Sequence record: MN850584.1
Length of the DNA stretch: 64,000 nt
Origin: Escherichia phage arall
Reading direction: 5' to 3' (one strand)
Shown: positions 7,311-50,101 of the stretch, one piece after another
How the letters are laid out: the number at the start of each line of letters is the position of its first letter
How positions within the stretch are numbered: position 1 is the first letter of the stretch
The notes under the pieces: model-generated
Told to the model about the DNA's origin: nothing
What the model saw: only the letters and a program-made list of their open reading frames with translations
Database searches by the model: none
Made by a program: the position numbers and the translations under genes

Positions 7311-7334
7311 AAACCCGCTTCGGCGGGTTTTCTT
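7311..7334 (+). terminator. rho-independent terminator
   Basis: hairpin CCCGCTTCGGCGGG followed by TTTTCTTG. Confidence 0.6.
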
Positions 7335-7679: not shown

Positions 7680-7716
7680 AAAGCCCCTAGAATCGCTTCT
7701 AGGGGCTTTTGTTTGC
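7680..7716. terminator. bidirectional terminator between convergent + and - blocks
   Basis: hairpin GCCCCTAGAATCGCTTCTAGGGGC flanked by A-run and T-run. Confidence 0.6.
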
Positions 7717-8047: not shown

Positions 8048-8068
8048 AAGAAAAGGGGCTTTCGCCCC
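8048..8068 (-). terminator. rho-independent terminator
   Basis: GGGGCTTTCGCCCC hairpin with U-tract on - strand; same hairpin recurs at 19344 and 32435. Confidence 0.55.
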
Positions 8069-8077
8069 TTGGTCAAG

Positions 8078-8890
8078 TTACTTAGTCAAATGATCTTCTA
8101 TCATTTTTATGAAAGCAGGATTGCTAAAAGCATCTGCTGCCTTTTCTCTGTAAACAAAGACTCCTCTATCTTCGTAAAGAAGAGTTTCTTCGTAATTAAT
8201 TCCTGGGTTAACAACAATCATTTTTGTACCCATATTAAGTGCAGGGAATAATTCCCAATTAAAATTGATAACTTGGTTTGAACATCCTACTACAACAACC
8301 AAATCTTGCATGGTCAAAGTATCAAACAAGTGAGCCATATCTGCATACAAAGGTGCAGCCTCACCAAAAAATACAACATTAGGCTTCACCCAGTTATAAT
8401 CATCTATGTTTATACTATTGTAACCAATATCTACCAGTGTTTTGTAATCTCCAGGATGCATACGGTAAACTACTTCAGGAAGATACCCGTGCACGTGAAT
8501 AACAGAATCCCTGTCCACACCTGCTCGCTCTAGTAGATCATCAACGTTTGTTGTCAAGTTTACTACTTGGTTAGGATATTCCTTAAACCACTTTGCTATT
8601 TGAATATGTGCAGCATTAGGTTGTACATCTTTAAGCTCAACACGTCTTTTGTTATAAAATTCGTGTGTTTTGGCATACAAGTCCATACCGTTCTCGTCTA
8701 CACCACCGACCACTGGAAGATCTGGAGATGTTCTCACACGATAACCTGCTTGGAAAGCTCCAATATCGCAGACCTCTTCTAAGTCATATTCTTCCCATAA
8801 GGCACGACCACTATCTGTGTCTGTTCGGAACGTTCGAATCCCACTGTCTGCACTTAAACCTGCGCCACTAACAAAAATTACTCTTCGCAT
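8078..8890 (-). CDS. Sir2-family (sirtuin-like) NAD-binding protein, no zinc-ribbon
   Basis: 270 aa; GAGLSADSGIRTFR (GAGIS/GIPxFR), TTNVDDLLERAG (TQNID-like), VIHVHG (catalytic His), VVVGCS; no CxxC pairs. Confidence 0.8.
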   Translation of the reverse strand: MRRVIFVSGAGLSADSGIRTFRTDTDSGRALWEEYDLEEVCDIGAFQAGYRVRTSPDLPVVGGVDENGMDLYAKTHEFYNKRRVELKDVQPNAAHIQIAKWFKEYPNQVVNLTTNVDDLLERAGVDRDSVIHVHGYLPEVVYRMHPGDYKTLVDIGYNSINIDDYNWVKPNVVFFGEAAPLYADMAHLFDTLTMQDLVVVVGCSNQVINFNWELFPALNMGTKMIVVNPGINYEETLLYEDRGVFVYREKAADAFSNPAFIKMIEDHLTK

Positions 8891-8901
8891 TCAATATCCT
8901 C

Positions 8902-9447
8902 TTAGTAATCATCATCCCAAGAAGATGCGTCGTAACGCTCTTCCTCTTCGAAATCCCAATTAATTTCTACTCCAAAATCTAAAAACAATTTAACAATGTT
9001 TTCTGTAGAGTAGTATTTATCATAAGCATTAGCTAGTTCCCAATACTTGTCACTCAATTTTTTATATTTAGGATCATTATAGTCATAATCTACTTTATAA
9101 CCATAATCATACATCTCTTGTTTAGCTTTAAGCATAGCTTCTGGTGTAAGAAGATTAGGGAACGGACGATTTCTTTCTTTTAACTTAGAAGCAATCCAGT
9201 TTGCAACATTCGCCACTTCACCATCTCGATTATCACCTAAACAACTTGCATAATCTCCATCTTCGTAAGTGCCTAAATCCCCACAGACCACATGTACAAT
9301 ACTTGAATACGATCCACACGTTTCACAATCTGAAAAAGTGTCTACTGTTGTAATATCAATAGATAAAACTGGTAAAGCCATAGCTTCTTTCACACAAGCC
9401 TCCTCATATAATAACATATCATCAAAACCCATATATCCTCCACACAA
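8902..9447 (-). CDS. hypothetical protein, acidic C-terminus
   Basis: 181 aa ORF. Confidence 0.55.
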   Translation of the reverse strand: MCGGYMGFDDMLLYEEACVKEAMALPVLSIDITTVDTFSDCETCGSYSSIVHVVCGDLGTYEDGDYASCLGDNRDGEVANVANWIASKLKERNRPFPNLLTPEAMLKAKQEMYDYGYKVDYDYNDPKYKKLSDKYWELANAYDKYYSTENIVKLFLDFGVEINWDFEEEERYDASSWDDDY

Positions 9448-9449
9448 AT

Positions 9450-9473
9450 AAAGCCCCTGATTGGGGCTTTGGT
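9450..9473 (-). terminator. rho-independent terminator
   Basis: hairpin AGCCCCTGATTGGGGCT with U-tract on - strand. Confidence 0.5.
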
Positions 9474-9486
9474 TAAGTTTTATGGA

Positions 9487-10098
9487 TTATACCAGACTTT
9501 TAAGGTACTTGTCAAGGGCTTCTTGATCACCTTGACAAACATAGCAACGGAAGTCTTGAGCAGAAGGTTCTTTGTCCTCGTCCCAATCCCAATAAACAGT
9601 ACCTTTATAACGTGAACCTGGGAACTCGAAATATGCCACATGAGTAATATGGTGTGGGCCACCCCAAAATTCTGTAAAAGTAAATTGAGGATACGCTGCT
9701 TTAACTGTATTCTCAAACCAAGTTTTACGATCTAATGCTTCGTTTATAAAATAAGCATGGCGTTCCATTTCATCCCAATCTTTCCAAACGCATTTTTCAT
9801 CCAGAGAAAAAACAAAATCTTCACTGTTAAAATCGTCTGTATCTGATTCCAAAATATCATAATCATGTGCACTAGGTATCCACCATCCAGCTTCTAATAG
9901 TGCTTTTGCAGGTACAAAACCTTTTTCAGCATATTGATCAAATTCTTTTACTCTACGTACAGTGCAGTATTCATCTTCACCACCAATGTCCAGCAGACAA
10001 GCACCTTTGCGTCTTGCTGCAAGACCATGTGTATCAAAAACTACAACACTACCTTCACCATCTTCACGATCTACTTGATATGCAACTTTTTGAGTCAT
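9487..10098 (-). CDS. hypothetical protein
   Basis: 203 aa ORF. Confidence 0.55.
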   Translation of the reverse strand: MTQKVAYQVDREDGEGSVVVFDTHGLAARRKGACLLDIGGEDEYCTVRRVKEFDQYAEKGFVPAKALLEAGWWIPSAHDYDILESDTDDFNSEDFVFSLDEKCVWKDWDEMERHAYFINEALDRKTWFENTVKAAYPQFTFTEFWGGPHHITHVAYFEFPGSRYKGTVYWDWDEDKEPSAQDFRCYVCQGDQEALDKYLKSLV

Positions 10099-36038: not shown

Positions 36039-36761
36039 TTAAGCAATGATTGCTGCGATATTAGGTTTAACAAAGGTAGATGGTTTCATAATTTTACCTT
36101 TGTCATCAAAGAATACGTACACCTTTTGAACTTCGTTATATACAGCATGTACCCCAGTATAAGAACCTTCTGCACGATCTTTGCTTCGCATCTCGATAGC
36201 ATCGCACTCTTTTTCAAGAGCTTCAATAATATCCTTAGTTTCCCAAATAGCCAGGAGTTGCTTCTTGGTAGGATACTTGGACTCATTGCTATTCAACACT
36301 TCACGCATAACCTTCTTCTCGTTATAAACAGAACGCACCAAAGTATCTCGTGCCATACGGGTAAGTGTAAGAGACATTAAGGCAAATTGCAAGTCATTTT
36401 CTACCATTTTATCAAATTCAATGATAACATCGTAAATGTTTTCTGCCAGAACATCTCCTGTCGGCATTTCCAGAGCTTTATCAACACCTTCTTTACCAAA
36501 GAACATAAATGCCAGGTAGGATGCTACCACAAAAATATCTGCTGCTGCATCAAGTAATTCAACGTGATCATTTTCCTGTGCTGCTGCTTGAAACTCTTTA
36601 AGTTCTTCTCGTACAAAAGAAAGTTGAGCTTCAAACATCTCTTGAGTAAATTCTGGAGTTACTCCACCGCGTGCCTTAGCATTCCAAGCAACAATTTGAT
36701 CGGCAGCTTTGATAAAGAAGCTATTGTCCACTTTTACTTGTTTGAAAAAATTCTCGATCAT
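36039..36761 (-). CDS. hypothetical protein (possibly all-alpha NTP pyrophosphohydrolase-like)
   Basis: 240 aa; EELKEF...ELLDAAADIF acidic helices. Confidence 0.4.
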   Translation of the reverse strand: MIENFFKQVKVDNSFFIKAADQIVAWNAKARGGVTPEFTQEMFEAQLSFVREELKEFQAAAQENDHVELLDAAADIFVVASYLAFMFFGKEGVDKALEMPTGDVLAENIYDVIIEFDKMVENDLQFALMSLTLTRMARDTLVRSVYNEKKVMREVLNSNESKYPTKKQLLAIWETKDIIEALEKECDAIEMRSKDRAEGSYTGVHAVYNEVQKVYVFFDDKGKIMKPSTFVKPNIAAIIA

Positions 36762-36770
36762 TGTTTCTCC

Positions 36771-36977
36771 TTATTTAAAATATTGTTCTAACAAAACACT
36801 AATGCGAACTACCGATTCGCCCATATACGCCCCAGCACAGAGGAAAACAACAAATCTACAAAAATTGCAGTACCATTTGTCCACTGGAAACGAGGCTAAC
36901 ATTATAATTGCAATAGCAATTAACATCATAAGAACTGTTACTAATACCATATTACCTCTTACTCTGCTGGTTCCCAA
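36771..36977 (-). CDS. small membrane protein
   Basis: 68 aa; hydrophobic MVLVTVLMMLIAIAIIMLASF. Confidence 0.45.
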   Translation of the reverse strand: MGTSRVRGNMVLVTVLMMLIAIAIIMLASFPVDKWYCNFCRFVVFLCAGAYMGESVVRISVLLEQYFK

Positions 36978-38074
36978 GTACCTGGAATCATCTTACGTAA
37001 ACGGACACCTGTTGGTTTCGTAGGTATTCCACCATCGGAAAACTCTTCATACTCAATCTCAACAAATTTACCAATTAACATTTCAGCATTTTCTGCTTTA
37101 CGATAGTTAATAGTTTCGTCTGAATCCTTACGCATCAGGAATTCGACTACTTTACCATTTTCCATCTCTCCTGTCAATACCCCGTCACCATTTTTATCAC
37201 GCTTTGCACTTACCACTTTAACTTCAAGCGTCTGGCGTGGTTTACGTTTAATAACATCATAAGAACGTTTATCAAATTCGTAAACACCTTTTGCATTACG
37301 ATACACCACACCTTCCGCTTTCTCACGTAGAGCTTTTGCATAGAAAGCATCAAACTGTTCTTGGTTTTCAATGTACTCTGTATGTACTACACAAATAAGT
37401 TCATCTAAACCTTTGTCTTCAACAACTTCTTTTAGAGCAGCCAAAACTTGAACCCTCTTCTCAAATGGTACAGATGCCACAGGAACATCATATACATAGT
37501 ATTTAAGAAGTGGTGTGTTAGCATTATGCTTTTTCCACGCACTATTAATTTGTTGAAGGCTAAGAACACCCAAGCCAGCAAAAACTTCACCGTCAAGAGG
37601 ATGACCAACTACTTCTTTAATAAAGGTTGGAATTTCTTCCCAGTGAGGTGGAAGTTTATATACCTCCCCAGCTTTAGATAAACATTCACCTTGCATGTTA
37701 ATCATTGAACGTAGACCATTCAATTTATATTGTGCATAACCTGGGAACAAAACACGGTCAGCATAATCTTTATAATCCTGACATTTCATGGGTGTGGAAG
37801 GAACATGGTTTTCAGCTTCCTCTTTTGTTTTATAGTACCCATTCTTAAGTTGCTTTGTCCATTTGGCAAGAGCTTCTATTTCAGCTTGTTCTTCTGCTGT
37901 TGTTTCATTTGAGCGACCAATATTTTTAGGTTCTGCCGTATAAGATTTGCTAGTGATCTTTCCACCTAATTGACCATGAGCAACAGTTACAACACTACCT
38001 TCGGTATAGACTGACCACTGTCTAATTTTACCTGTAGAAGTTTTACCATATAATGTAGGATTAGTTTGTTTCAT
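36959..38074 (-). CDS. ATP-dependent polynucleotide ligase (probable DNA ligase)
   Basis: ORF track trimmed to ATG 38074 (RBS GGAGG); motif I KLNGLR, DGEV, EGVVYR, KRKP. Confidence 0.65.
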   Translation of the reverse strand: MKQTNPTLYGKTSTGKIRQWSVYTEGSVVTVAHGQLGGKITSKSYTAEPKNIGRSNETTAEEQAEIEALAKWTKQLKNGYYKTKEEAENHVPSTPMKCQDYKDYADRVLFPGYAQYKLNGLRSMINMQGECLSKAGEVYKLPPHWEEIPTFIKEVVGHPLDGEVFAGLGVLSLQQINSAWKKHNANTPLLKYYVYDVPVASVPFEKRVQVLAALKEVVEDKGLDELICVVHTEYIENQEQFDAFYAKALREKAEGVVYRNAKGVYEFDKRSYDVIKRKPRQTLEVKVVSAKRDKNGDGVLTGEMENGKVVEFLMRKDSDETINYRKAENAEMLIGKFVEIEYEEFSDGGIPTKPTGVRLRKMIPGTWEPAE

Positions 38075-38264
38075 CTTTAACCTCCAGTTGCGAAAGAACC
38101 CATTTAGCCATTTCAATTTCACCGTGTAGTCTGCCTAGTTCATAGGCATCATCAATATTACCACCAGTGTAATCATCCACCATAAAGTAAGGATCTTCAC
38201 TACTGTTAGGCGCGTTTGCAATTCTCGTTAGTTCTTCAATAAATGTCATAGTTAACCTTACCAA
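38061..38264 (-). CDS. hypothetical protein
   Basis: 67 aa ORF. Confidence 0.45.
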   Translation of the reverse strand: MVRLTMTFIEELTRIANAPNSSEDPYFMVDDYTGGNIDDAYELGRLHGEIEMAKWVLSQLEVKDETN

Positions 38265-38482
38265 TTATACACAAGAGTTTGAATTTGTTCCATCAAATCT
38301 TCAAGATCTGTATCAACATATTCAGAAGATGTTGCCATAAAGTATGTAATCATTGTGAACCCTTCCGAAGAAAGGGCATCAAGGATATCATTAAACATAT
38401 CTTCCATTTCAGTATTCTCACCAAATGAGAATAACATTTGTTGATCTTCGCTTACACCTTTAACATAGATAGCTGTACTCAT
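38258..38482 (-). CDS. hypothetical acidic protein
   Basis: 74 aa ORF. Confidence 0.45.
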   Translation of the reverse strand: MSTAIYVKGVSEDQQMLFSFGENTEMEDMFNDILDALSSEGFTMITYFMATSSEYVDTDLEDLMEQIQTLVYNW

Positions 38483-38485
38483 ATA

Positions 38486-38806
38486 TTAATCCTTAAGACG
38501 TTCATTTAAATCTGCAATAACATCACCTAAATCTTCACATTCCAGCGTTAACTCTGAAACTTGTCCACTCAAATAAGAAACTTCTTCGTTTAGATCTGAA
38601 ATAATGTTTTCTAATGAATCTACTTGGTCATCATATGCACGTTTTGTTTCTTCAAGTTCTTCCGTAAGATCATTAATCAAACGGAGCAAAGATAAGATAT
38701 AGCCGTCTCCTGTCTCGTTCCTCCACTCACTTCCATAGCGATAAATAATAATTTTACCATCATCGACTACTGTAAAATACTTACCTTTACCAGAATAAAT
38801 TTCCAT
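38486..38806 (-). CDS. coiled-coil protein
   Basis: 106 aa; heptad-like acidic helix. Confidence 0.5.
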   Translation of the reverse strand: MEIYSGKGKYFTVVDDGKIIIYRYGSEWRNETGDGYILSLLRLINDLTEELEETKRAYDDQVDSLENIISDLNEEVSYLSGQVSELTLECEDLGDVIADLNERLKD

Positions 38807-38815
38807 AAATTCTCC

Positions 38816-39220
38816 TTATTGTAGCTTAAGTGAACTGCGAAGACGTTTCTCTTGCTGATCACGAATATGTTGTGGAACCTCATGAATTGAGTCGTTACCG
38901 TGCCTATTTTCAACAACTAAAGAGATAACTTGATAACCAAACTCTTCAGCAAGAGTTAAATAAGGTTTAAGTTCTTTCTCTGTGGTTGAAGTGTTAGAGA
39001 CAATAATCTTTTTAATATTAGATGCCATAGCATCACGAACAATACTCTGACACCATGCGTGGGCTTTACCTACATTTTCTGGCTTCCAATCGTAAACACC
39101 CCTTTCTGTGTAATGGTATTGATCTGCCTCACAGATAGGCCAATAACCTTCAGAAATAATTTCTGCTACTGTAGATTTACCTGCACCTGAAACACCACGT
39201 AAAATGATAAGTTGTTTCAT
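38816..39220 (-). CDS. polynucleotide 5'-kinase (T4 Pnk kinase-domain-like)
   Basis: 134 aa; ILRGVSGAGKST P-loop, IIVSNTSTT, EFGYQV parallel T4 Pnk ILTIGCPGSGKST/VIISDTN/EYGWKV. Confidence 0.7.
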   Translation of the reverse strand: MKQLIILRGVSGAGKSTVAEIISEGYWPICEADQYHYTERGVYDWKPENVGKAHAWCQSIVRDAMASNIKKIIVSNTSTTEKELKPYLTLAEEFGYQVISLVVENRHGNDSIHEVPQHIRDQQEKRLRSSLKLQ

Positions 39221-40153
39221 TTAGCCTCCAAAGAAGTTTTCTATTTCTTTACGTCGCTCTTGTGGAGCTAGAGCAGCCCATTGAACCTTCGTAAAATTAT
39301 TTCGAAGCCATTCTATCAAAGTATAATATTCTTCGTCAACAATTTGTTTAGCATTATTTGGGTTGTCCCAAATCATATCCCACTTCTTATTACCACCACG
39401 CATAAGGAACTTCTTAGCAAGATAGTATGGTGACTTAATTTTTAAGAGTAAGTTAAACGGGTAGTTTGTTTCACGAACAACAAAGCCTTCGTGTCTACAA
39501 TGTTTAGACATTTCAACAACATCTGAAAATTTAATCATCGGATAAACTTCAGGACGTTTAAATTTTGTAATAGATGCAATCCCATCAAGAACACCTTCAG
39601 GTAACATGAAACTTGTCCCATCAAGATTTTGAATTCTTGCTCCAATTAAGTATGCGCCTGGTTCTTCTTCGACAATATGTGGATCAGAAGGATCACAGAT
39701 TTCAAAAAGGAAAGTTGCTTTTGCACTTTCTGTCCACTTAATGAAATACTCTATGTCATCACACTCGGAAACAATACGGTTCTTGGCAATAGTTGCAAAG
39801 TCTGACTCTAGGCTCCCTGTTGTTGATACAACAAGTTTCCCTTTGTACACACCTACAGATGCCATAAAACCGTTTACTTTACGGACAGCATCTACAAATT
39901 CATCTCCTGGAAGATCTGTACCATTCTCAAAACGATTAAAGATTTTAGTAAAAGGCCAAATAACAATATTATCTTCTGAGTCAACAACCAACCCACGACA
40001 ATCTAAAAGTCGTTTGTCAACGTTCCACAAGTTATCCCAGAATACATTGTTTTTGTATTTAAGTACAGCAAGACCAGCATACTCTCCAGATTTAACTTCT
40101 TTTTTATGCACTAAACCTTTTGCAATCAGGTCATCACAATTGAACTTAGCCAC
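39221..40153 (-). CDS. RNA ligase-like nucleotidyltransferase
   Basis: 310 aa; motif I RKVNGF (KxNG), HEGFVVRE, LLKIKSP. Confidence 0.6.
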   Translation of the reverse strand: MAKFNCDDLIAKGLVHKKEVKSGEYAGLAVLKYKNNVFWDNLWNVDKRLLDCRGLVVDSEDNIVIWPFTKIFNRFENGTDLPGDEFVDAVRKVNGFMASVGVYKGKLVVSTTGSLESDFATIAKNRIVSECDDIEYFIKWTESAKATFLFEICDPSDPHIVEEEPGAYLIGARIQNLDGTSFMLPEGVLDGIASITKFKRPEVYPMIKFSDVVEMSKHCRHEGFVVRETNYPFNLLLKIKSPYYLAKKFLMRGGNKKWDMIWDNPNNAKQIVDEEYYTLIEWLRNNFTKVQWAALAPQERRKEIENFFGG

Positions 40154-40154
40154 C

Positions 40155-40706
40155 TTAATCTCCTTTGATTATCTTATGATGGTCTACAACAATAATATCA
40201 CGCTTATCCATAATAGAGATGATTTCGTCAAAATGCAAGATTTTCCCGTGTGCATCCCAACCAACATCCAACATTTTCCCATACAAATGATCAGGGAATG
40301 ATCCGTGAGAGTGTCCGTGTAGCATGATTGATCCATGCCCTTGTTTATTCCAGGCAGCCATAGGGTAATGACTTAAGACGAAGAACAATTTCTGATATTT
40401 CACTTCGTCATAATACACAACTTCTCCATACTCTGCAAGCACTTTTCTGTGTTTACTGTAATCATGGTTCCCAACACAGTAAGTAATATCCCCTTGGAGA
40501 CGGGAAGCAATCTTACGGGTATCTTCTTCAGTCCCGAAACAGAAGTCCCCAAGATGGTACATCTTTACTCCTGGTGTTGTGGCACATTTATTCCATGCTT
40601 CGATCAGTGCTTCTGTCATATGCTCCATATCTTCCCACGGGCGATATTCAGGAGCAAACTCTCGGATACGTTTGTGCATAAAATGCAAATCACTTGTAAT
40701 AAACAT
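40155..40706 (-). CDS. calcineurin-like metallophosphoesterase
   Basis: 183 aa; SDLHFMH, GDFCFG, GNHDY, GHSHG. Confidence 0.8.
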   Translation of the reverse strand: MFITSDLHFMHKRIREFAPEYRPWEDMEHMTEALIEAWNKCATTPGVKMYHLGDFCFGTEEDTRKIASRLQGDITYCVGNHDYSKHRKVLAEYGEVVYYDEVKYQKLFFVLSHYPMAAWNKQGHGSIMLHGHSHGSFPDHLYGKMLDVGWDAHGKILHFDEIISIMDKRDIIVVDHHKIIKGD

Positions 40707-41065
40707 TAGTATAATCCCTCGCTGAATAGTTCACTGTTGTGACCATTTCTTTCGTAGTTAATTTGTTTGGCGTTATCTGCAATGACATAAGCATCTTTGC
40801 GACTCCACCAGTTATAATACTGATCAATAAACCCTTGATTATCAGGTAAGCAAAACAGTTTATCGATCAATCCTGCATCTTTTAAAACATTAAGTTGTGC
40901 AGATAGTACAGGATTTGCATGCCTAACACAAGGAATAATTAACTCTTCACCATTGTTAAGAATATACTTGTTCGCAGCGCAGACTATAACACGTTGAGCA
41001 TAGTGATCCTCACCAATCCAAGTGAGAGGTTGGTAACAAATATCATGTTGATTAGTAGCGCACAT
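40706..41065 (-). CDS. hypothetical protein
   Basis: ORF track start (TTG 41068) moved to adjacent ATG. Confidence 0.5.
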   Translation of the reverse strand: MCATNQHDICYQPLTWIGEDHYAQRVIVCAANKYILNNGEELIIPCVRHANPVLSAQLNVLKDAGLIDKLFCLPDNQGFIDQYYNWWSRKDAYVIADNAKQINYERNGHNSELFSEGLY

Positions 41066-41214
41066 CAATTTTCTCCATACTCTTTTAGTCTATCAGCTAA
41101 AAAACTGTAATCAGGAAGTAAAAGATCATTACTCGTATCGCTCCAATTTTCTTCCTCTCTATAGATAAAATGCCCTTCATCCTCTTCTTGCTCTGACCAG
41201 ACTGAGTAATGCAT
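41065..41214 (-). CDS. small acidic protein (49 aa)
   Basis: ATGA overlap with downstream gene; below track cut-off. Confidence 0.3.
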   Translation of the reverse strand: MHYSVWSEQEEDEGHFIYREEENWSDTSNDLLLPDYSFLADRLKEYGEN

Positions 41215-41223
41215 AACACCTAC

Positions 41224-41598
41224 TTAATAGTTAACACGTTTAATTTCAACACCATAGGATGCAATAAAATTTTCCTTAGCTAACATATATTTACCAGCAG
41301 CAGAAGGATTTGATGTATGAACATAGATAGTTTTAAGAGCATCCCATTCACCTGCGTACAACATACATTCTACGTCTAAGAACGCATGATATCCTTCTTG
41401 ATCTTCTCCAAGATCATTATCGAAGTGTATCTCTGAAATATTATTGAAATTATCTTCATCTGAAACAAAAGATGACCAATCCCCAAAAGATTTTAACCAA
41501 ATGGCATCCTCATAACCATAATCTTTAGGATCTCTTAAATCGTCTAACCAAAGAATTTTAGCCACTATCAACCCCCTTCCTGTTTCTCTTCTTTCCAA
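41224..41598 (-). CDS. hypothetical protein
   Basis: 124 aa ORF. Confidence 0.55.
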   Translation of the reverse strand: MERRETGRGLIVAKILWLDDLRDPKDYGYEDAIWLKSFGDWSSFVSDEDNFNNISEIHFDNDLGEDQEGYHAFLDVECMLYAGEWDALKTIYVHTSNPSAAGKYMLAKENFIASYGVEIKRVNY

Positions 41599-43600: not shown

Positions 43601-44494
43601 ATGAAAGTTAGTATTCTACATGGTGTTGACTGTTATGTTACTGATGTAGACGTTAAAGTCTTTACATTCTCTGGTGGAGAACAACATGTTCAACTAGATA
43701 CGAATCTATCAGGTTTCAATCATGCTACAGACAGAATCTTACTCTCTTTAGAAGTAAGATCTGCTAAAGACTTGATGACTTTGGTTATGACTAAGAATGC
43801 ATTGGACAATATGCTATATCATAAACCATATTGTGTTGATTTGCTCATGTTGTATGTGCCATATGCACGACAAGACAGAGTGTGTGAACCTGGGGAAGCA
43901 TTCGGAGTTAAAGCATTTGCTTCTATAATTAATTCATTAAATTTCTCACGTGTTATCGTTGCTGATCCACATAGTGATGTTACTCCAGCGGTGTTTGACA
44001 GACTCTGTGTAATACCTCAAGAAGAGATTGCTTACGAAACTTTAAAGTGGAAGTTACGTATGGAGAATTTTGCTCTTGTTAGTCCTGATGGTGGTGCTCT
44101 TAAGAAAATATTTAAATTATCTAAGAAAATGTCTTTAGATGTGTTCTGTGCAGAGAAGGTTAGAGATACTGCAACAGGTGCTATTGTTCGTACAGACATT
44201 TCTGTACAGGATTTCAATAAGCGTAACCTGATGATCGTAGATGATATCTGTGACGGCGGTAGAACTTTTATTGAATTGGCTAAAGTGCTACGTGCTCGTA
44301 ACGCAGGTAAGATTGAGTTATATGTTACACACGGTATCTTTTCTAAAGGTCTTAAAGAGTTAAGTGAGCACTTTGACTGCATTCATTCTCTTAATGTGTG
44401 GGAAGATAACATCCAAGAAGATTCCGGTGTTCTTGTTAAGAATCAGTCAGATTTGCAACAACAAATTGTATCTCCATACGTGTGGAATTTTTAA
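43601..44494 (+). CDS. PRPP-synthetase-like phosphoribosyl pyrophosphokinase (candidate ADP-ribose pyrophosphokinase, Adps-like)
   Basis: 297 aa; VPYARQDR, VSPDGGALKK, IVDDICDGGRT motifs; RBS AAGGAGA. Confidence 0.8.
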   Translation: MKVSILHGVDCYVTDVDVKVFTFSGGEQHVQLDTNLSGFNHATDRILLSLEVRSAKDLMTLVMTKNALDNMLYHKPYCVDLLMLYVPYARQDRVCEPGEAFGVKAFASIINSLNFSRVIVADPHSDVTPAVFDRLCVIPQEEIAYETLKWKLRMENFALVSPDGGALKKIFKLSKKMSLDVFCAEKVRDTATGAIVRTDISVQDFNKRNLMIVDDICDGGRTFIELAKVLRARNAGKIELYVTHGIFSKGLKELSEHFDCIHSLNVWEDNIQEDSGVLVKNQSDLQQQIVSPYVWNF

Positions 44495-44504
44495 ATAATA
44501 AGTG

Positions 44505-44533
44505 TTGACAATAGGGAGTATGCTTAGTAAGAT
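44505..44533 (+). promoter_or_regulatory. sigma70-like promoter (TTGACA-N17-TAAGAT)
   Basis: consensus -35 with 17-nt spacer. Confidence 0.45.
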
Positions 44534-44565
44534 ACTCCCACACTAACAAACAAGGAGACATAACT

Positions 44566-46299
44566 ATGAATATTTTTGCACCTTTTGCTACTGATTGGTA
44601 TAAACCTGGTCACAAGCAGATGTACAACCAAAATACAAAACTCATTTTCTCTAATTTAACTCCTCGTAATGATAAAAACTTTGCACACTATGCAGATCGT
44701 GAAGCACGTGGTGTAATTGTTTTAGGTATTCGTCGAGCAGTTACTGATGCTCTTGTAACTATGTGGGATAGCTTCTTTAAAATGTCTCGTAGTGCAGCAG
44801 TAAATAAGTTTTATCGTATGTCTAAAAATGCATTAGGTGCTTCTTCTCCTTCTGCTGAATGTTGGGGAGAATTGCACGATTTAGGTTATCTTCCGCTGGA
44901 AGTTCGATCTCTGCCAGAAGGTGTTTTGTGTCCTATTGGTGTTCCTGTGTTTACTGTGCATAATACTTTAGAAAAATTCTTTTGGTTAACTAACTATGTG
45001 GAAACACTATTGTCAGATGAAACTTGGAAGACAATGACTAATGCTACAGCAGCTTTTCAGTATAAGCGTATTGCTATGGCATATGCGATGGCAACGTGTG
45101 ATAATATTGATCACGTTAACTTCCAGTGTCATGATTTTAGCCTACGTGGTTTAAGTAATATTGAAGATGGTTATAAGAGTGGTATCGCTCATTTGGCATC
45201 GTTCACAGGCACAGATAATATTCTGGCTATTGAAACTGTGCATGATTATTATGGTATTGATTATGATCAGTTTGTTGCAGGTTCTATTCCGGCAACAGAA
45301 CATTCAGTAGCAACGACTAACATTGGAGCTATTGTTGAAGATCTGAAGAAACATTTCCCACATCTTAAAGATGATGTTGATGGGCTTCGTTATGTAGCAG
45401 AGAAAGAGTTTCTTCGCCGCTATATTGAAGAAATTGTTCCAGAAGGTTTTTGTTCATATGTAGCAGATTCTTATGATTACTGGGCTGTCTTGACTCGCAT
45501 TCTGGTAGAATTGAAAGAGTCCATTATGTCACGAAATGGTCGTCTTGTTATTCGTCCAGATTCAGGAGATCCGGTTAAAGTTGTTGCAGGATACAATGTT
45601 GAATCTTTTGCTAACTATGAAGACCTTTTAAATAATGGTATTGCTACAGCCACTGAAGTAGTTCATTTGGCTGATGTTAATAAGTATTACAATGTTCTTC
45701 AGGATTGCAGTGTTGCTGATTGTATTGATGAAACTTATGAGATTCCTTATTGTGAAGCAGTAGGTTCTATTCAAATCCTTTGGGAAGTGTTTGGTGGTAC
45801 TATCAACCGAAAAGGCTACAAGGTTCTTGATCAGCACATCGGTATGATTTATGGTGATTCTATTACTGTTGAACGAGAACACGAGATCTTACGCCGACTG
45901 AAGAAGAAAGGTTTTGCAGCTTCCAATATTGTATTTGGTGTTGGTAGTTATACTTATCAGTTCAATACACGAGATACTTTTGGTTTTGCTGTTAAAGCAA
46001 CAGGTAGTATCATCGGTGAACACGAAATTTTGGTAAGTAAGGAGCCTAAAACTGATCCTGGTAAACGCTCTGCAAAAGGTTTTATTAAGGTTGTTAAGGA
46101 TACAAATGGTAAACTTTCTCTTGTGGATAATCTTTCTTTTAAAGATATTCAAGATGAAGACAATGAGTTAAAAGTTATCTTCAGGGATGGTACGGTTATT
46201 ACACCACAAGTAGAAGGACGTGATGAAACATTTACTGATATCCGCAACCGTGTTGATGTAGAGGTTCTTCGTACTATGGGAACCATCCAGGTTGACTAA
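44566..46299 (+). CDS. nicotinamide phosphoribosyltransferase-like (NadV/NAMPT family; candidate Namat)
   Basis: 577 aa; N-terminal FATDWYKPGHKQMY and overall NAMPT-like organisation; RBS AAGGAGA. Confidence 0.8.
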   Translation: MNIFAPFATDWYKPGHKQMYNQNTKLIFSNLTPRNDKNFAHYADREARGVIVLGIRRAVTDALVTMWDSFFKMSRSAAVNKFYRMSKNALGASSPSAECWGELHDLGYLPLEVRSLPEGVLCPIGVPVFTVHNTLEKFFWLTNYVETLLSDETWKTMTNATAAFQYKRIAMAYAMATCDNIDHVNFQCHDFSLRGLSNIEDGYKSGIAHLASFTGTDNILAIETVHDYYGIDYDQFVAGSIPATEHSVATTNIGAIVEDLKKHFPHLKDDVDGLRYVAEKEFLRRYIEEIVPEGFCSYVADSYDYWAVLTRILVELKESIMSRNGRLVIRPDSGDPVKVVAGYNVESFANYEDLLNNGIATATEVVHLADVNKYYNVLQDCSVADCIDETYEIPYCEAVGSIQILWEVFGGTINRKGYKVLDQHIGMIYGDSITVEREHEILRRLKKKGFAASNIVFGVGSYTYQFNTRDTFGFAVKATGSIIGEHEILVSKEPKTDPGKRSAKGFIKVVKDTNGKLSLVDNLSFKDIQDEDNELKVIFRDGTVITPQVEGRDETFTDIRNRVDVEVLRTMGTIQVD

Positions 46300-47045: not shown

Positions 47046-47121
47046 GGTTCCATAGCTCACTGACGAGAGCGCACACCTCATAAGTGTCGAGGGCAGGGAT
47101 TGTAACCCTGGGGAACCACCA
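47046..47121 (+). tRNA. tRNA-Met/Ile2 (anticodon CAT), non-canonical T-loop ATTGTAA
   Basis: hand-folded cloverleaf: acceptor GGTTCCA/GGGAACC (one A.G), D-arm GCTC-ACTGACGA-GAGC, anticodon loop CTCATAA, T-stem CAGGG/CCCTG, CCA encoded. Confidence 0.55.
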
Positions 47122-47152
47122 TTTAAAAGGAGGTGCTATGCATCTCCTATAT

Positions 47153-47238
47153 GCAAGTGTGGTGGAATTGGTGATACACATTGTGCTTAAAACGCAACGC
47201 TTAAATGCTTGAGGGTTCGAATCCCTCCACTTGCACCA
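47153..47238 (+). tRNA. tRNA-Leu (anticodon TAA)
   Basis: acceptor GCAAGTG/CACTTGC, anticodon loop CTTAAAA, long variable arm, T-loop TTCGAAT, CCA encoded. Confidence 0.75.
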
Positions 47239-47240
47239 AC

Positions 47241-47346
47241 GCCTAGTAGGGTATTTGGTAATTCCGAGGCCATCAAAGCCTGAAAAATATGTTAGACCGC
47301 TTTGTCTAACTAAATACGAAATATGGTTCGATTCCATAACTAGGCT
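47241..47346 (+). other. atypical over-long tRNA-like gene (106 nt)
   Basis: perfect 7-bp acceptor GCCTAGT/ACTAGGC and canonical T-arm TATGG-TTCGATT-CCATA, but about 30 nt too much between them, including a 7-bp hairpin GTTAGAC-CGCTTT-GTCTAAC. Confidence 0.35.
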
Positions 47347-47379
47347 TCAATTTAAATAGTAATTTTAGTAAAAAATATC

Positions 47380-47408
47380 TTGACATTTACTTAGTTTTTT
47401 GTTATAGT
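47380..47408 (+). promoter_or_regulatory. sigma70 consensus promoter (TTGACA-N17-TATAGT)
   Basis: near-consensus hexamers ending 12 nt upstream of tRNA-like gene at 47420. Confidence 0.55.
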
Positions 47409-47419
47409 CGTTATGAAAA

Positions 47420-47501
47420 CGGGGTGTATCTCACCTGACTTCTAATCAGGCGTTAACCGAGTAATTGGAGTATGCAGGTTCGAATCCTGTCACCCCGGCC
47501 A
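47420..47501 (+). other. atypical tRNA-like gene with anticodon hairpin TCT (Arg-type) and no recognisable D-arm
   Basis: perfect acceptor CGGGGTG/CACCCCG + CCA, T-arm GCAGG-TTCGAAT-CCTGT, anticodon arm CCTGA-CTTCTAA-TCAGG; only 7 nt (TATCTCA) where D-arm should be; 23-nt variable region with GNRA-capped stem. Confidence 0.4.
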
Positions 47502-47519
47502 AAAAGTTTTAAAAACTAC

Positions 47520-47549
47520 TTGACAAGCAAGATAGTTTTATGTTAGATT
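47520..47549 (+). promoter_or_regulatory. sigma70-like promoter (TTGACA-N17/18-TTAGAT)
   Basis: hexamers upstream of tRNA-Ser. Confidence 0.4.
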
Positions 47550-47564
47550 TAAAGTATGATAACT

Positions 47565-47654
47565 GGAAGGTAGGGCGCAGCGGTGCGCAACCAGGTTTGA
47601 ACCCTGGCCCATTGTAGCGATACGGTGATGGTTCGACTCCATTATCTTCCTCCA
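47565..47654 (+). tRNA. tRNA-Ser (anticodon TGA)
   Basis: acceptor GGAAGGT/ATCTTCC, anticodon arm CCAGG-TTTGAAC-CCTGG, long variable arm, T-loop TTCGACT, CCA. Confidence 0.7.
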
Positions 47655-47660
47655 AATTCA

Positions 47661-47825
47661 ATGAGTGATTTTATGAATTATAAAACTATTGGACAGGTTG
47701 TTACCGGAGTTAAGATTGTAAATAATAAAGTTGTTTATGAGTATTCTAATCTTCAACAATCTGAAGATGGTAAGAATATTCGTATGGTAAAAGCAGAACA
47801 AAAAGATTCCGGTTGTTTTGAATAA
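47661..47825 (+). CDS. small hypothetical protein inside tRNA cluster
   Basis: ORF track 47625..47825 trimmed to first ATG after tRNA-Ser 3' end; no clear RBS. Confidence 0.3.
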   Translation: MSDFMNYKTIGQVVTGVKIVNNKVVYEYSNLQQSEDGKNIRMVKAEQKDSGCFE

Positions 47826-47833
47826 TTAAGAAC

Positions 47834-47919
47834 GGTAGATTGGTGAAATGGTAGCCACAACAGTTTGCTAAACTGTCGTCGGAAACGGCGTGTAGGTTCA
47901 AGTCCTACATCTACCGCCA
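47834..47919 (+). tRNA. tRNA-Ser (anticodon GCT)
   Basis: acceptor GGTAGAT/ATCTACC, anticodon loop TTGCTAA, long variable arm, T-loop TTCAAGT, CCA. Confidence 0.7.
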
Positions 47920-48054
47920 AGTTATCTTTAATGTAGCTTGTAATCTTACTTTAGCAGAGTAAATCTTCGGCAAGTGGCGGTAACCACTTTACCGATACCC
48001 CAATACTTCATAGCTAAGTGCCGCAAACACTGGCTATTTTAAAGATAATTTTAT

Positions 48055-48129
48055 ACATCGTTAGCCAAGCGGTAAGGCACTTGACTTTTAATCAAGGGAG
48101 CGAAGGTTCGAATCCTTCACGATGTACCA
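48055..48129 (+). tRNA. tRNA-Lys (anticodon TTT)
   Basis: acceptor ACATCGT/ACGATGT, D-arm GCC-AAGCGGTAA-GGC, anticodon loop CTTTTAA, T-loop TTCGAAT, CCA. Confidence 0.75.
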
Positions 48130-48134
48130 AACAC

Positions 48135-48221
48135 GTAGGTATCGCATAGCGGCAATTGCTGGAGACTGTAAATCTCCTGCCCTTCTGGGCTTCGTTGGTT
48201 CGAGTCCAACTACCTGCACCA
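48135..48221 (+). tRNA. tRNA-Tyr (anticodon GTA)
   Basis: acceptor GTAGGTA/TACCTGC (U2.G71), anticodon arm GGAGA-CTGTAAA-TCTCC, long variable arm, T-loop TTCGAGT, CCA. Confidence 0.7.
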
Positions 48222-48228
48222 AATTAAA

Positions 48229-48313
48229 GATGGATTGGCCTAGTGGTTGGGCGACGGACTGTTAATCCGTGAACGAAAGTTCTAGCAAGGTTCAAATCCT
48301 TGATCCATCGCCA
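48229..48313 (+). tRNA. class-II (long variable arm) tRNA with anticodon GTT (Asn codons) in a Ser/Tyr-like body
   Basis: acceptor GATGGAT/ATCCATC, 3-bp D-stem GCC/GGC, anticodon arm ACGGA-CTGTTAA-TCCGT, 15-nt variable arm GAACGAAAGTTCTAG, T-loop TTCAAAT, CCA. Confidence 0.5.
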
Positions 48314-48320
48314 GAATTAT

Positions 48321-48397
48321 GGACTTGTAGAGTTAAGGTAAAACCCCAGTCGCCAAGAGGCTTCTGGAATTGCAGGTATCGAATCCTGTCGAGTCCA
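48321..48397 (+). pseudogene. degenerate tRNA-like element (possible tRNA pseudogene)
   Basis: acceptor-like GGACTTG/CGAGTCC and T-arm-like GCAGG-TATCGAAT-CCTGT (8-nt loop); no D-arm or anticodon arm found. Confidence 0.3.
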
Positions 48398-48403
48398 AGT
48401 ATT

Positions 48404-48478
48404 GCTCCTATCGTATAACGGCTATTACGGTTGCCTTGTAAGCAACTTATCAGGGTTCGAGTCCTTGTGGGAGCACCA
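48404..48478 (+). tRNA. tRNA-Thr (anticodon TGT)
   Basis: acceptor GCTCCTA/TGGGAGC, anticodon arm GTTGC-CTTGTAA-GCAAC, T-loop TTCGAGT, CCA. Confidence 0.75.
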
Positions 48479-48495
48479 ATTTTAACTCTAAAGGA

Positions 48496-48825
48496 GTGTA
48501 TGTGACAGAAAAAGAGTTAGAGAAATATTTTAATATCAATGTTTTCGATGGTTTTGATGATATTGAAGATGTTGAAAGATATTATGAAGTAGAGTTAGAT
48601 AAGGATAACATTGTAATTCTTTCTGCCACTTATGATTGTGCATATTATGAAGGTGAATCTCACGTTTATTTTTATGATATGAAAACATCTTTGTTTTATG
48701 AAGTACACGCATATCATTGTTCTTGTTATGGTTTAGAAGGTCAGTGGGAACCTGAAGAAATAGGTGATTTGGATTTTACTATTGCATATCTAAACAGACG
48801 TGGTGCATCTACTATTTTAAAATAA
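48496..48825 (+). CDS. hypothetical acidic protein inside tRNA cluster
   Basis: 109 aa; GTG start at RBS AAGGAG (alternative GTG 48502). Confidence 0.5.
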   Translation: MYVTEKELEKYFNINVFDGFDDIEDVERYYEVELDKDNIVILSATYDCAYYEGESHVYFYDMKTSLFYEVHAYHCSCYGLEGQWEPEEIGDLDFTIAYLNRRGASTILK

Positions 48826-48839
48826 ATATCAAAAGCCTC

Positions 48840-48869
48840 TTGACAAAGTGGCTAATAATATGTTAGAGT
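48840..48869 (+). promoter_or_regulatory. sigma70-like promoter (TTGACA-N18-TAGAGT)
   Basis: hexamers upstream of tRNA-Gly. Confidence 0.4.
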
Positions 48870-48880
48870 AATATTGTTAA

Positions 48881-48955
48881 GCGGGTATAGTGTTAATTGT
48901 AGCATATGAGGTTTCCACCCTCCAGGTGCAGGTTCAAGTCCTGTTACTCGCTCCA
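48881..48955 (+). tRNA. tRNA-Gly (anticodon TCC)
   Basis: acceptor GCGGGTA/TACTCGC, anticodon loop TTTCCAC, T-loop TTCAAGT, CCA. Confidence 0.65.
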
Positions 48956-49302
48956 AGATTATTTAAATGGAATCGCTAGAGAAAATTTCTCTTTTCGCTC
49001 ATGGTTTTCTCCTTCAAACTCTAGCGGTTCTTTTTAAGTGATTTTTAGTTTATTGGAGATTCACTGCCTTAGTATGAGCTAAAATCGAGGAGCCATCGAA
49101 CTGTCTGATTAATGATTTGCGAATCATTATAGTTTTAAGACCCCGGCAGTTTTATGGTGTACCTCTTGAATGTGAATGATGACGGGTTTATGGTTATCCT
49201 GGTCGTTAAATATCCAAAAACCTATGTTCCCCTTGATGGCTTGCGCAGGCAATGCCAATAAGTCCTGCATTTTCATTTAAAAGAGAATTTATAATGGAAA
49301 AA

Positions 49303-49380
49303 GATGAACTTAAGTATGCTAAGCCTCTGGCTTCTGCTGCACGAAAAGCAGTTCGTCACTTTGTGGTAACACTGAAGTAA
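49303..49380 (+). CDS. very small ORF (25 aa) in structured noncoding stretch
   Basis: ATG 9 nt after AAGAGAA; MEKDELKYAKPLASAARKAVRHFVVTLK; speculative. Confidence 0.2.
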   Translation, partial: DELKYAKPLASAARKAVRHFVVTLK

Positions 49381-49385
49381 TTTAT

Positions 49386-49460
49386 TGGAGATTAGCCTAG
49401 TGGGAAGGCAACGGCCTTTGAAGTCGTGATGACTAGGTTCGATTCCTAGATCTCCAGCCA
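49386..49460 (+). tRNA. tRNA-Gln (anticodon TTG)
   Basis: acceptor TGGAGAT/ATCTCCA (U1-A72), anticodon arm ACGGC-CTTTGAA-GTCGT, T-loop TTCGATT, CCA. Confidence 0.75.
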
Positions 49461-49467
49461 AGATTTA

Positions 49468-49543
49468 CAGTGCGTAGCGCAGTTGGTAGCGTGGGAGCTT
49501 TGGATGCTTCGGGTCGCAGGTTCGAGTCCTGCCGCACTGACCA
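49468..49543 (+). tRNA. tRNA-Pro (anticodon TGG)
   Basis: acceptor CAGTGCG/CGCACTG (C1-G72), anticodon loop TTTGGAT, T-loop TTCGAGT, CCA. Confidence 0.75.
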
Positions 49544-49548
49544 AATTT

Positions 49549-49623
49549 GCAGAGATAGCTGAGACGGATTAGTGCTACCCTGAAAAGGTAGAAAGGATGG
49601 ATCGTTACCATCTCTCTGCACCA
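49549..49623 (+). tRNA. tRNA-Phe (anticodon GAA), non-canonical T-loop ATCGTTA
   Basis: acceptor GCAGAGA/TCTCTGC, anticodon arm CTACC-CTGAAAA-GGTAG, T-stem GATGG/CCATC, CCA. Confidence 0.6.
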
Positions 49624-49700
49624 AATAACACCATCCAAGGAGTAGACTTGGTTAACTGTCAATAGCACATTGAGGCTTCTTACAGTGGTGTACTTATTAT

Positions 49701-49785
49701 GGCTAAGTGGTGGAATGGTATACACGATACGCTTAGAACGTATTGCCCCAAGGGATTGTGAGTTCGAGTCTCACCTTAGCTACCA
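49701..49785 (+). tRNA. tRNA-Leu (anticodon TAG)
   Basis: acceptor GGCTAAG/CTTAGCT, anticodon arm ATACG-CTTAGAA-CGTAT, long variable arm, T-loop TTCGAGT, CCA. Confidence 0.7.
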
Positions 49786-49800
49786 AATTATTACAGATTG

Positions 49801-49879
49801 TGCGGGATAGAGGAGTCTGGTCGTCCTCGCCAGTTTCATATGCTGGAGATCATCGGTTCAAATCCGATTCCCGCCTCCA
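49801..49879 (+). tRNA. tRNA-Met/Ile2 (anticodon CAT)
   Basis: acceptor TGCGGGA/TCCCGCC (1-72 mismatch), D-arm GAGG/CCTC, anticodon arm CCAGT-TTCATAT-GCTGG, T-loop TTCAAAT, CCA. Confidence 0.6.
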
Positions 49880-49956
49880 ATAAATACCTCCCTTCTGGTG
49901 TAATGATTAAATTGCATTGACACTTCAAGGAACTCATAGCCGGGTAGATTTAAAAG

Positions 49957-50020
49957 AGTATGGTACTCAATATGGCTCCAAACCATAGATCAAGGGGTTC
50001 GATTCCTCACCTTGCTGCCA
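49957..50020 (+). other. short (64 nt) tRNA-like gene with anticodon hairpin CCA (Trp-type), no D-arm
   Basis: anticodon arm TATGG-CTCCAAA-CCATA, T-arm AGGGG-TTCGATT-CCTCA, 3' CCTTGCT-G-CCA pairs with AGTATGG (6/7); only 7 nt (TACTCAA) in D-arm position. Confidence 0.35.
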
Positions 50021-50025
50021 ATTAT

Positions 50026-50101
50026 TGTGGTATCGTACAGATGGTTAGTACACTCGACCGATAATCGAGAAACAACGGTTCGACTCCGTTTACCACGACC
50101 A
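50026..50101 (+). tRNA. tRNA-Ile (anticodon GAT)
   Basis: acceptor TGTGGTA/TACCACG, D-arm GTAC/GTAC, anticodon arm CTCGA-CCGATAA-TCGAG (C33), T-loop TTCGACT, CCA. Confidence 0.65.

Follow-up and report, generated by a model that had tools for sequence, protein, structure and literature searches.

The sirtuin gene of phage arall

The window analyzed here is a stretch of 64,000 nucleotides from the genome of Escherichia phage arall (sequence record MN850584.1), a phi92-like Justusliebigvirus that matches phage inny with 99.7% identity over 3.5 kb. Our subject is a gene of this window that encodes a predicted protein of 270 amino acids (aa) belonging to the Sir2 family, i.e., the sirtuins. The original prediction had singled out the open reading frame (ORF) for its sirtuin signatures, GAGLSADSGIRTFR, TTNVDDL, HG and VVVGCS, and all of these are found, at residues 9-22, 113-119, 134-135 and 199-204, respectively; the strand, which that account did not give, is the minus strand. 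The gene has already been annotated in hundreds of genomes. An account of the missing zinc ligands dates from 2016, and a publication of 2022 presented the clade together with a functional hypothesis. The gene and its conserved segments are as follows.

8078..8890, minus strand: sirtuin coding sequence, 270 aa (orthologue of phi92 gp038; PHROG 2162), identified as an ORF and by Pfam SIR2, PHROG and an AlphaFold2 (AF2) model
8825..8866, minus strand: cofactor-binding loop, GAGLSADSGIRTFR, residues 9-22, in which G9, A10, G11, S13, S16, F21 and R22 are invariant
8642..8659, minus strand: FYNKRR, residues 78-83, the class III Tyr/Arg anion-binding pair (HMMER alignment to CobB, conservation)
8534..8554, minus strand: TTNVDDL, residues 113-119, the equivalent of TQNID, in which N115 and D117 are invariant
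8486..8491, minus strand: catalytic His-Gly, H134-G135, of which H134 aligns with CobB H147
8375..8488, minus strand: zinc-ribbon-equivalent module, residues 135-172 (alignment, AF2 model, family conservation)

An AAGAGGA ribosome-binding site stands 5' of the ATG, and the product matches the Pfam SIR2 family (PF02146) with E=1.3e-22 and 81 bits against a cut-off of 24, as well as PHROG 2162, "Sir2 (NAD-dependent deacetylase)", over its full length (E=1.3e-105, residues 1-269). This family match is far beyond chance. Identity to phi92 gp038, annotated as "predicted NAD-dependent deacetylase (Sir2-like) fold", reaches 99.3%. The AF2 model has a predicted local distance difference test score (pLDDT) of 91.2 and a predicted template modeling (TM) score of 0.88, and its Rossmann fold, the motifs and the above-threshold Pfam match place the protein in the Sir2 family and confirm both the ORF and its identity as a sirtuin.

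Conservation was assessed in a set of 56 family members with 55-92% identity to the arall protein, every one of which (56/56) matches PF02146. Invariant in this set are N115 and D117 of the nicotinamide-ribose site, the H134-G135 pair that includes the general base, residues K169-P170-N171-V172 and F174-F175-x-E177 of the FGE strand, and N228-P229 of the adenine-ribose site. The Gln of the TQN motif has been replaced by Thr (TTN), a change that is fixed in the phage clade. In the HMMER alignment, Y79 and R82, which are likewise invariant (56/56), stand opposite CobB Y92 and R95, and FYNKRR matches the class III Tyr-x-x-Arg signature (Y102/R105 in SIRT5). The same alignment maps the acyl pocket of CobB onto the phage protein as A76 to C41, Y92 to Y79, R95 to R82, I131 to V116, V187 to V172 and F190 to F175, and all of the mapped residues are invariant in the phage family. 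Four of these CobB positions (A76, Y92, I131 and V187) are ones that have been mutated in engineered acyl-specificity variants, as judged from PDB titles.

Relationship to CobB and to other SIR2 proteins

The relatives of the arall sirtuin that lead all searches are class III sirtuins, namely CobB, Sir2Af1, Sir2Af2 and SIRT5. A sequence search of the PDB returns Escherichia coli CobB first (1s5p, E=1.5e-18), followed by Sir2Af2, Sir2Tm, Sir2Af1 and SIRT5, and a profile of the family returns CobB (1.9e-25), then Sir2Af2, Sir2Af1, SIRT5, Sir2Tm and SIRT2. The top 50 Foldseek matches in the PDB are all deacylase sirtuins, again with CobB in first place (E=1e-17, target TM 0.84). The protein shares with CobB (PDB 1S5P, 6RXJ) and its relatives Sir2Af1, PfSir2A and SIRT5 the fold and domain order, the GAGxS loop, the F-R pair, N-x-D, the catalytic HG, FYxxRR, the K/R-P-x-VV-F-F/W-GE strand, the acyl-pocket residues and a small-domain segment of similar length. 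It differs from CobB in that it is only 27-29% identical, has lost all of the zinc-ligand cysteines, carries TTN in place of TQN, and has an extra helix-loop at residues 43-70, with an insertion of roughly 25 residues at 46-70.

The original prediction had held that the protein resembles the NAD-hydrolyzing or ADP-ribosylating SIR2 domains of defense systems more than CobB, and had proposed a structural comparison with CobB, ThsA and SirTM. That comparison puts CobB ahead, and the scores of the remaining proteins in the structure comparison table were as follows.

Deacylases and other sirtuins: Sir2Af1 (29% identity) 21.6; PfSir2A 19.2; SIRT4 18.3; Hst2 and SIRT2 17.8; SIRT1 17.6; SIRT6 14.3
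SirTM: 15.0 and 14.8
Defense SIR2 proteins: PsSIR2 13.3; KomC 12.3; SIR2-HerA 12.3 and 11.6; ThsA 11.6; Avs5 10.5 and 9.3

What the phage protein has in common with SirTM and with the defense SIR2 NAD+ glycohydrolases (NADases), such as ThsA, DSR1/2, SIR2-HerA, SIR2-APAZ, KomC and Avs5, is the Rossmann-type NAD-binding core and the catalytic Asn; the NADases also share the catalytic His, and the defense versions likewise lack a zinc ribbon. The only Pfam SIR2 model that it matches is the canonical one, and none of the 56 family members matches SIR2_2 (PF13289). The only PADLOC match, of 13.8 bits over 37 residues, is not credible. The sirtuin is a single-domain protein with no fusion or operon partner of the defense type (SLOG, HerA, APAZ/pAgo, STAND or KomB), its neighbors being ORFans and a Dcm methylase, and the defense NADases are not its closest structural relatives. 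SirTM is distinguished by a His-to-Gln replacement (the QG-R motif) and by an operon with a macrodomain and GcvH-L, and it still binds zinc (PMC8120803). In the phage family H134-G135 is invariant, and no macrodomain, GcvH-L or lipoate ligase gene lies within about 12 kb on either side. No NADase or ADP-ribosylating SIR2 is as near to the protein as CobB is, and the central claim of the original prediction therefore finds no support. Nor do the missing cysteines provide evidence for a defense-like NADase.

A zinc ribbon without its cysteines

The protein contains only two cysteines (C41 and C203) and, as had been noted, no CxxC. None lies within residues 135-172, and the four-Cys zinc site of class III sirtuins is absent. 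The further statement that the protein lacks the zinc ribbon holds for the ligands and not for the segment itself. In an alignment of the arall protein with 150 representatives, chosen after 1.84 billion cluster representatives had been searched exhaustively with 2,174 matches at E<1e-3, the stretch from the catalytic His to VVFFGE is 44 aa long as compared to 45-48 in relatives with the C-x2-C ... C-x2-C arrangement, and it shares with the Cys-bearing relatives a D/N-I-G-Y core. AF2 models it as three strands (135-143, 151-154 and 167-172) with a pLDDT of about 95. Since the segment is of normal length and is predicted to form three strands, the model indicates that the ribbon is kept and that only its four Cys ligands have been replaced; a deletion of the ribbon was rejected on the same grounds. 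The former Cys positions are occupied by Y142, H145, S159 and I162, all of which vary within the family, so that a degenerate or alternative metal site built of His or Asp was also rejected and a substitute site is ruled out. In the KVP40-type homolog this part of the protein has been described as a "finger-like" domain in which salt bridges take the place of the bacterial zinc ligands (Skliros et al. 2016, PMC5107563).

Among the nearest relatives the loss of ligands is uniform, a CxxC being absent from every one of the 120 closest 90%-identity clusters, and it is divided among the 142 informative distant representatives, where ligands are absent from 51 and present in 91. A separate ligand-free subgroup consists of the chromosomal sirtuin of Bacteroidota (Parabacteroides, Flavobacterium, Dyadobacter, Chryseobacterium and others), with two or fewer cysteines in the module at 79 of 80 loci. 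These proteins resemble the phage sirtuin in that they are class III-like, keep the catalytic residues and FYNxRR, and have no four-Cys site in the ribbon; they are unlike it in being housekeeping genes of cells and in forming a separate lineage (TQN kept, ...GDKxxDGSQLRPHIVWFGE), from which we conclude that their loss of ligands was independent. Loss of the zinc ligands is therefore not peculiar to phages, and sirtuins without them are common in the chromosomes of Bacteroidota. Zinc-bearing near relatives exist both in a phage-like contig context and in a Mollicutes-like cellular context, and the loss in the clade of enterobacterial and vibrio phages is therefore derived. One zinc-bearing relative, on a Logan ERR10093333 contig, adjoins a lipoate-protein ligase gene and a gene of the Mycoplasma MpPF1 family, and translation of the called gene by table 11 differs from the stored protein, which suggests a Mollicutes code (UGA=Trp).

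Distribution of the phage clade

By tblastn, homologs occur in 983 phage records. Identity to the arall protein is 65-100% in phi92- and phAPEC8-like phages, 50-60% in T5-like phages, about 57% in Mydo-like phages, about 48% in rV5-like phages, about 37% in KVP40-type vibriophages and 30-35% in jumbo phages. A scan for the motifs of the phage clade among 185,579 bacterial and archaeal species genomes (one genome per species) found no cellular relative, and the clade appears to be phage-restricted. Its full-length profile match and phage-only distribution make the arall protein a member of the phage sirtuin clade (PHROG 2162; the Sir2 proteins of T5-, rV5- and KVP40-like phages), which was defined as "a distinct clade" by Iyer et al. 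2022 (PMC9503650). It is 36-60% identical to the T5-, rV5- and KVP40-type proteins and has in common with the last of these the "finger" free of zinc ligands (PMC5107563).

Two sets of records in this distribution deserve mention for reasons of their own. In the T5-like Escherichia phage DT57C (NC_027356.1), the alignment with the sirtuin is confined to residues 193-228 (13% coverage, 68% identity) despite an annotated "sir2", and some T5-like phages may have a gene that has decayed or diverged strongly. Several records of "Campylobacter" phages (for example MG065689.1, A110a, and MG065682.1, A112b) encode an RNA ligase and a sirtuin about 95% identical to proteins of phi92- or rV5-like phages of E. 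coli, and the Campylobacter jejuni host labels look doubtful.

The operon and its transcription signals

A long minus-strand region of early and middle genes has the sirtuin gene close to its 3' end and includes genes for ribonucleotide reductase, thymidylate synthase, deoxythymidine diphosphate (dTDP)-rhamnose synthesis, PhoH, methyltransferases and a calcineurin-like phosphatase. Its closer surroundings are as follows.

9486..9515, minus strand: perfect sigma-70 consensus promoter, TTGACA-N18(TG)-TATAAT, the sole perfect one in the window
9450..9470, minus strand: GC hairpin between the promoter and the start of gp039, about 16 nucleotides 3' of the promoter
8902..9432, minus strand: gp039-like ORF, 176 aa, acidic, with four invariant cysteines, upstream of the sirtuin gene in a two-gene unit
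8053..8070, minus strand: GC-rich terminator-like hairpin with a T-run, directly 3' of the sirtuin stop codon, with an equivalent in Phapecoctavirus TSP7_1

The promoter is kept in phi92, EmilieFrey and, as TATAGT, in TSP7_1, and the whole unit of promoter, hairpin, gene pair and terminator is kept in phi92 and EmilieFrey and also in Phapecoctavirus, which is a different genus. A perfect and conserved sigma-70 promoter unit suggests that the genes would be expressed early by the host RNA polymerase. The hairpin at 9450..9470 would stand at the 5' end of the transcript, ahead of the ribosome-binding site of gp039, and could be a leader stem-loop, a terminator of the upstream operon, or both; it might act as a 5' stabilizer, an attenuator or a terminator.

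The gp039-like protein has only five homolog clusters and a confident model, and structure comparison gave no recognizable fold. The "aminoacyl-tRNA synthetase" label that it bears in a BASEL record is unsupported, and gp039 was rejected as a clue to function.

Proposed function of the sirtuin

The reading that we favor, with confidence that is about evenly divided, is that the protein is a stand-alone, zinc-independent, phage-specific lysine deacylase of class III (CobB/SIRT5-type), dependent on NAD+, produced early and directed at proteins of the host and/or the phage. To the gene, family, fold, residue conservation, transcription signals and phage restriction described above we would add an activity, an acyl preference, a timing and targets that we infer as follows. 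Co-transcribed with the small, acidic gp039-like protein from the perfect sigma-70 promoter, the enzyme would be made early by the host RNA polymerase. The GAGxS loop, F21/R22 and N115/D117 would bind its NAD+, and the acyl-lysine of a substrate protein would enter a hydrophobic tunnel lined by C41, V116, V172 and F175. Attack of the acyl carbonyl oxygen on C1' of NAD+ would release nicotinamide, and activation of a ribose hydroxyl by H134 would then lead to free lysine and 2'-O-acyl-ADP-ribose. The ribbon would serve as a structural element held by side-chain packing in place of the Zn(Cys)4 center. Given the invariant Y79/R82 pair, succinyl, malonyl and glutaryl groups are predicted to be accepted beside acetyl, as by CobB and SIRT5, and the outcome would be that proteins of the host and/or the phage are stripped of their acyl marks during infection.

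Several observations weigh against this reading. The curated CobB equivalog models (NCBIfam) are not reached, the best score being 106.5 bits where NF001753 demands 243 and the remaining ones 44-87 bits against cut-offs of 221-395. The cofactor loop carries a conserved four-residue insertion relative to CobB, and residues 24-29 are the sole low-confidence stretch of the model. The peptide-binding loop, GTSGHVYP in CobB, has become GCSNQVINFNWELFP (in short form, VYP to VIN-FNWELFP), with loss of the Pro and a new motif that is specific to the clade. The geometry proposed for the pocket derives from alignment and not from model coordinates, and we found no experimental work in the literature on any enzyme of the clade. 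Finally, genes for RNA end repair adjoin the sirtuin gene in rV5-, Mydo- and T5-like phages and reportedly in jumbo phages, which a generic deacylase would not explain.

The last of these points leads to the main rival of this reading, a proposal made from gene neighborhoods, in which the phage sirtuins would remove 2'-phosphates from RNA in the manner of Tpt1/KptA and at the expense of NAD+ (Iyer, Burroughs, Anantharaman and Aravind 2022; PMC9503650, section 3.7.3). Here a 2'-phosphate left by a metal-independent nuclease would attack C1' of NAD+, and the His-activated ribose 2''-OH would take the phosphate off as ADP-ribose 1'',2''-cyclic phosphate, so that the RNA ligase pathway of the phage is offered a clean junction and phage or host tRNAs are shielded from anticodon nucleases. 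The arall genome has an end-repair block of the appropriate kind at 36039..41598, about 28-33 kb from the sirtuin gene, and also a cluster of tRNA genes.

36039..36770, minus strand: MazG-like gene of the end-repair block
36959..38122, minus strand: ATP-dependent DNA ligase gene of the end-repair block
38816..39220, minus strand: P-loop (polynucleotide) kinase gene of the end-repair block
39221..40153, minus strand: T4 Rnl1-type RNA ligase gene of the end-repair block
40155..40706, minus strand: calcineurin-like phosphoesterase gene of the end-repair block
41224..41598, minus strand: cREC homolog (E=3e-31 to rV5 cREC; not flagged by Pfam)
43601..44494, plus strand: PRPS-like ORF (Adps-type), from Pfam and annotation
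44566..46299, plus strand: NAPRTase/NAMPT-family ORF (Namat-type), from Pfam and annotation
47046..50101, plus strand: cluster of 15 tRNA genes, including two each for tRNA-Met(cat), Leu and Ser, directly 3' of the preceding pair

The full set of putative partners (cREC, phosphoesterase, RNA ligase, kinase and MazG-like) is thus present in the window along with 15 tRNA genes. In the rV5-like phage AlexBoehm the order is RNA ligase, cREC_REC (PF20274), sirtuin and MazG-like, with the kinase and phosphoesterase genes divergent; a Mydo-like Klebsiella phage has phosphoesterase, RNA ligase, cREC, kinase, Sir2, DNA ligase and MazG; and in the T5-like phage Stitch a HAD_SAK_2 "Swiss-army-knife RNA repair" domain (a phosphatase) is encoded three genes downstream of the sirtuin. 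Because the arall block matches the rV5- and Mydo-like operon that holds the sirtuin, it appears that the gene has been relocated in the Stephanstirmvirinae (phi92-like and phAPEC8-like phages), where, unlike in other phages of the clade, it is detached from the RNA-repair operon and, under a consensus promoter of its own, belongs to a gp041-gp039-sirtuin-gp037 block. The chemistry of sirtuins is also formally parallel to the two steps of Tpt1, and the invariant Tyr/Arg/Arg cluster could bind phosphate. Set against this are the distance between gene and block and the separate promoter, which leave the arall gene without a local RNA-repair neighborhood, and the finding by BLASTP of no partner gene conserved across the phi92-, rV5-, T5- and nt-1-type loci. 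Among the records of Salmonella phages, just 15 contain the RNA ligase as compared to 289 that contain the sirtuin, and for Pseudomonas phages the ligase is present in 175 records and the top taxa yielded no sirtuin. The family is acidic when charge is assessed by the isoelectric point (pI) of the whole protein (median pI 4.98, net charge about -13), which is unusual for an enzyme that binds polynucleotides, and the pI of 4.8 for the arall protein is similarly unfavorable to an RNA 2'-phosphotransferase. The residues of the predicted narrow acyl-lysine tunnel are invariant, and an RNA substrate would not be expected to require them. T4-type Pnkp/Rnl repair, moreover, leaves no 2'-phosphate, which counts against the proposal. 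On balance we consider an RNA-repair role for the sirtuin rather unlikely, and we find it quite unlikely that the clade as a whole is a sirtuin-fold analogue of Tpt1/KptA and not a deacylase, engaged in 2'-phosphate removal or some other ADP-ribosylation of phosphorylated RNA ends during the repair of tRNAs cleaved by host anticodon nucleases, with the gene merely moved in phi92-like phages. If it were so, the sirtuin fold would gain a new chemistry and substrate class, and phages a new counter to anticodon-nuclease defense.

Two other roles would draw on the NAD+ chemistry in different ways. As a NAD+ glycohydrolase or manipulator of NAD pools, the protein would hydrolyze NAD+ without an acceptor or bind immune signals derived from NAD or ADP-ribose (ADPR), so that host metabolism would be reprogrammed or NAD-based defense signaling blunted, with a NARP1-type pathway recycling the products. 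In defense SIR2s the NADase residues are likewise the catalytic Asn and His, the KVP40 homolog was originally described with a role in NAD+ hydrolysis (as reported in PMC5107563), and the NAD+ resynthesis pair that had been predicted in this phage is real, consisting of the PRPS-like and NAMPT-like ORFs at 43601..46299, the type of pair that in NARP1 regenerates NAD+ out of ADPR plus nicotinamide (10.1101/2024.02.11.579819). The NAMPT-like gene occurs in 1,824 phage records, with many lineages that have no sirtuin, and for this reason the idea that the sirtuin is coupled specifically to NAD+ reconstitution was rejected. We also set aside, as not transferable, an argument against a phage NADase that invokes the NARP1 paper, in which ADPR-PP is seen only with a host NADase; the phage concerned, Bas63, is a Felixounavirus in which the presence of a sirtuin is not established. 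We consider a NADase role improbable. Mono-ADP-ribosylation of a host protein or nucleic acid for takeover, in the manner of SirTM, SIRT4 or SIRT6, seems more improbable still, in that the protein shows none of the hallmarks of SirTM (its catalytic His is kept and not replaced by Gln, and the characteristic neighbors are missing), identity is 11-14%, and the deacylase classes match much better.

The gene is carried by roughly a thousand sequenced phages, among them T5, the rV5-like and phi92-like phages of the BASEL collection and KVP40-type vibriophages, and is always labeled "NAD-dependent deacetylase". Its interest lies in its being a widespread and easily testable phage enzyme, and not in the absence of CxxC. 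Should it be a deacylase, as we favor, phages would reset the lysine acylation of host proteins or their own early in infection at a cost in NAD+, with a bearing on immunity by NAD+ depletion and on the pathways of NAD+ reconstitution.

The junction downstream of the operon

Two perfectly palindromic GC hairpins, at 7311..7330 and 7680..7709, have T-runs on both strands and are candidate bidirectional terminators. They are situated at the junction where early genes of the plus strand meet, in convergent orientation, the minus-strand operon that has gp037 and the sirtuin gene at its end.

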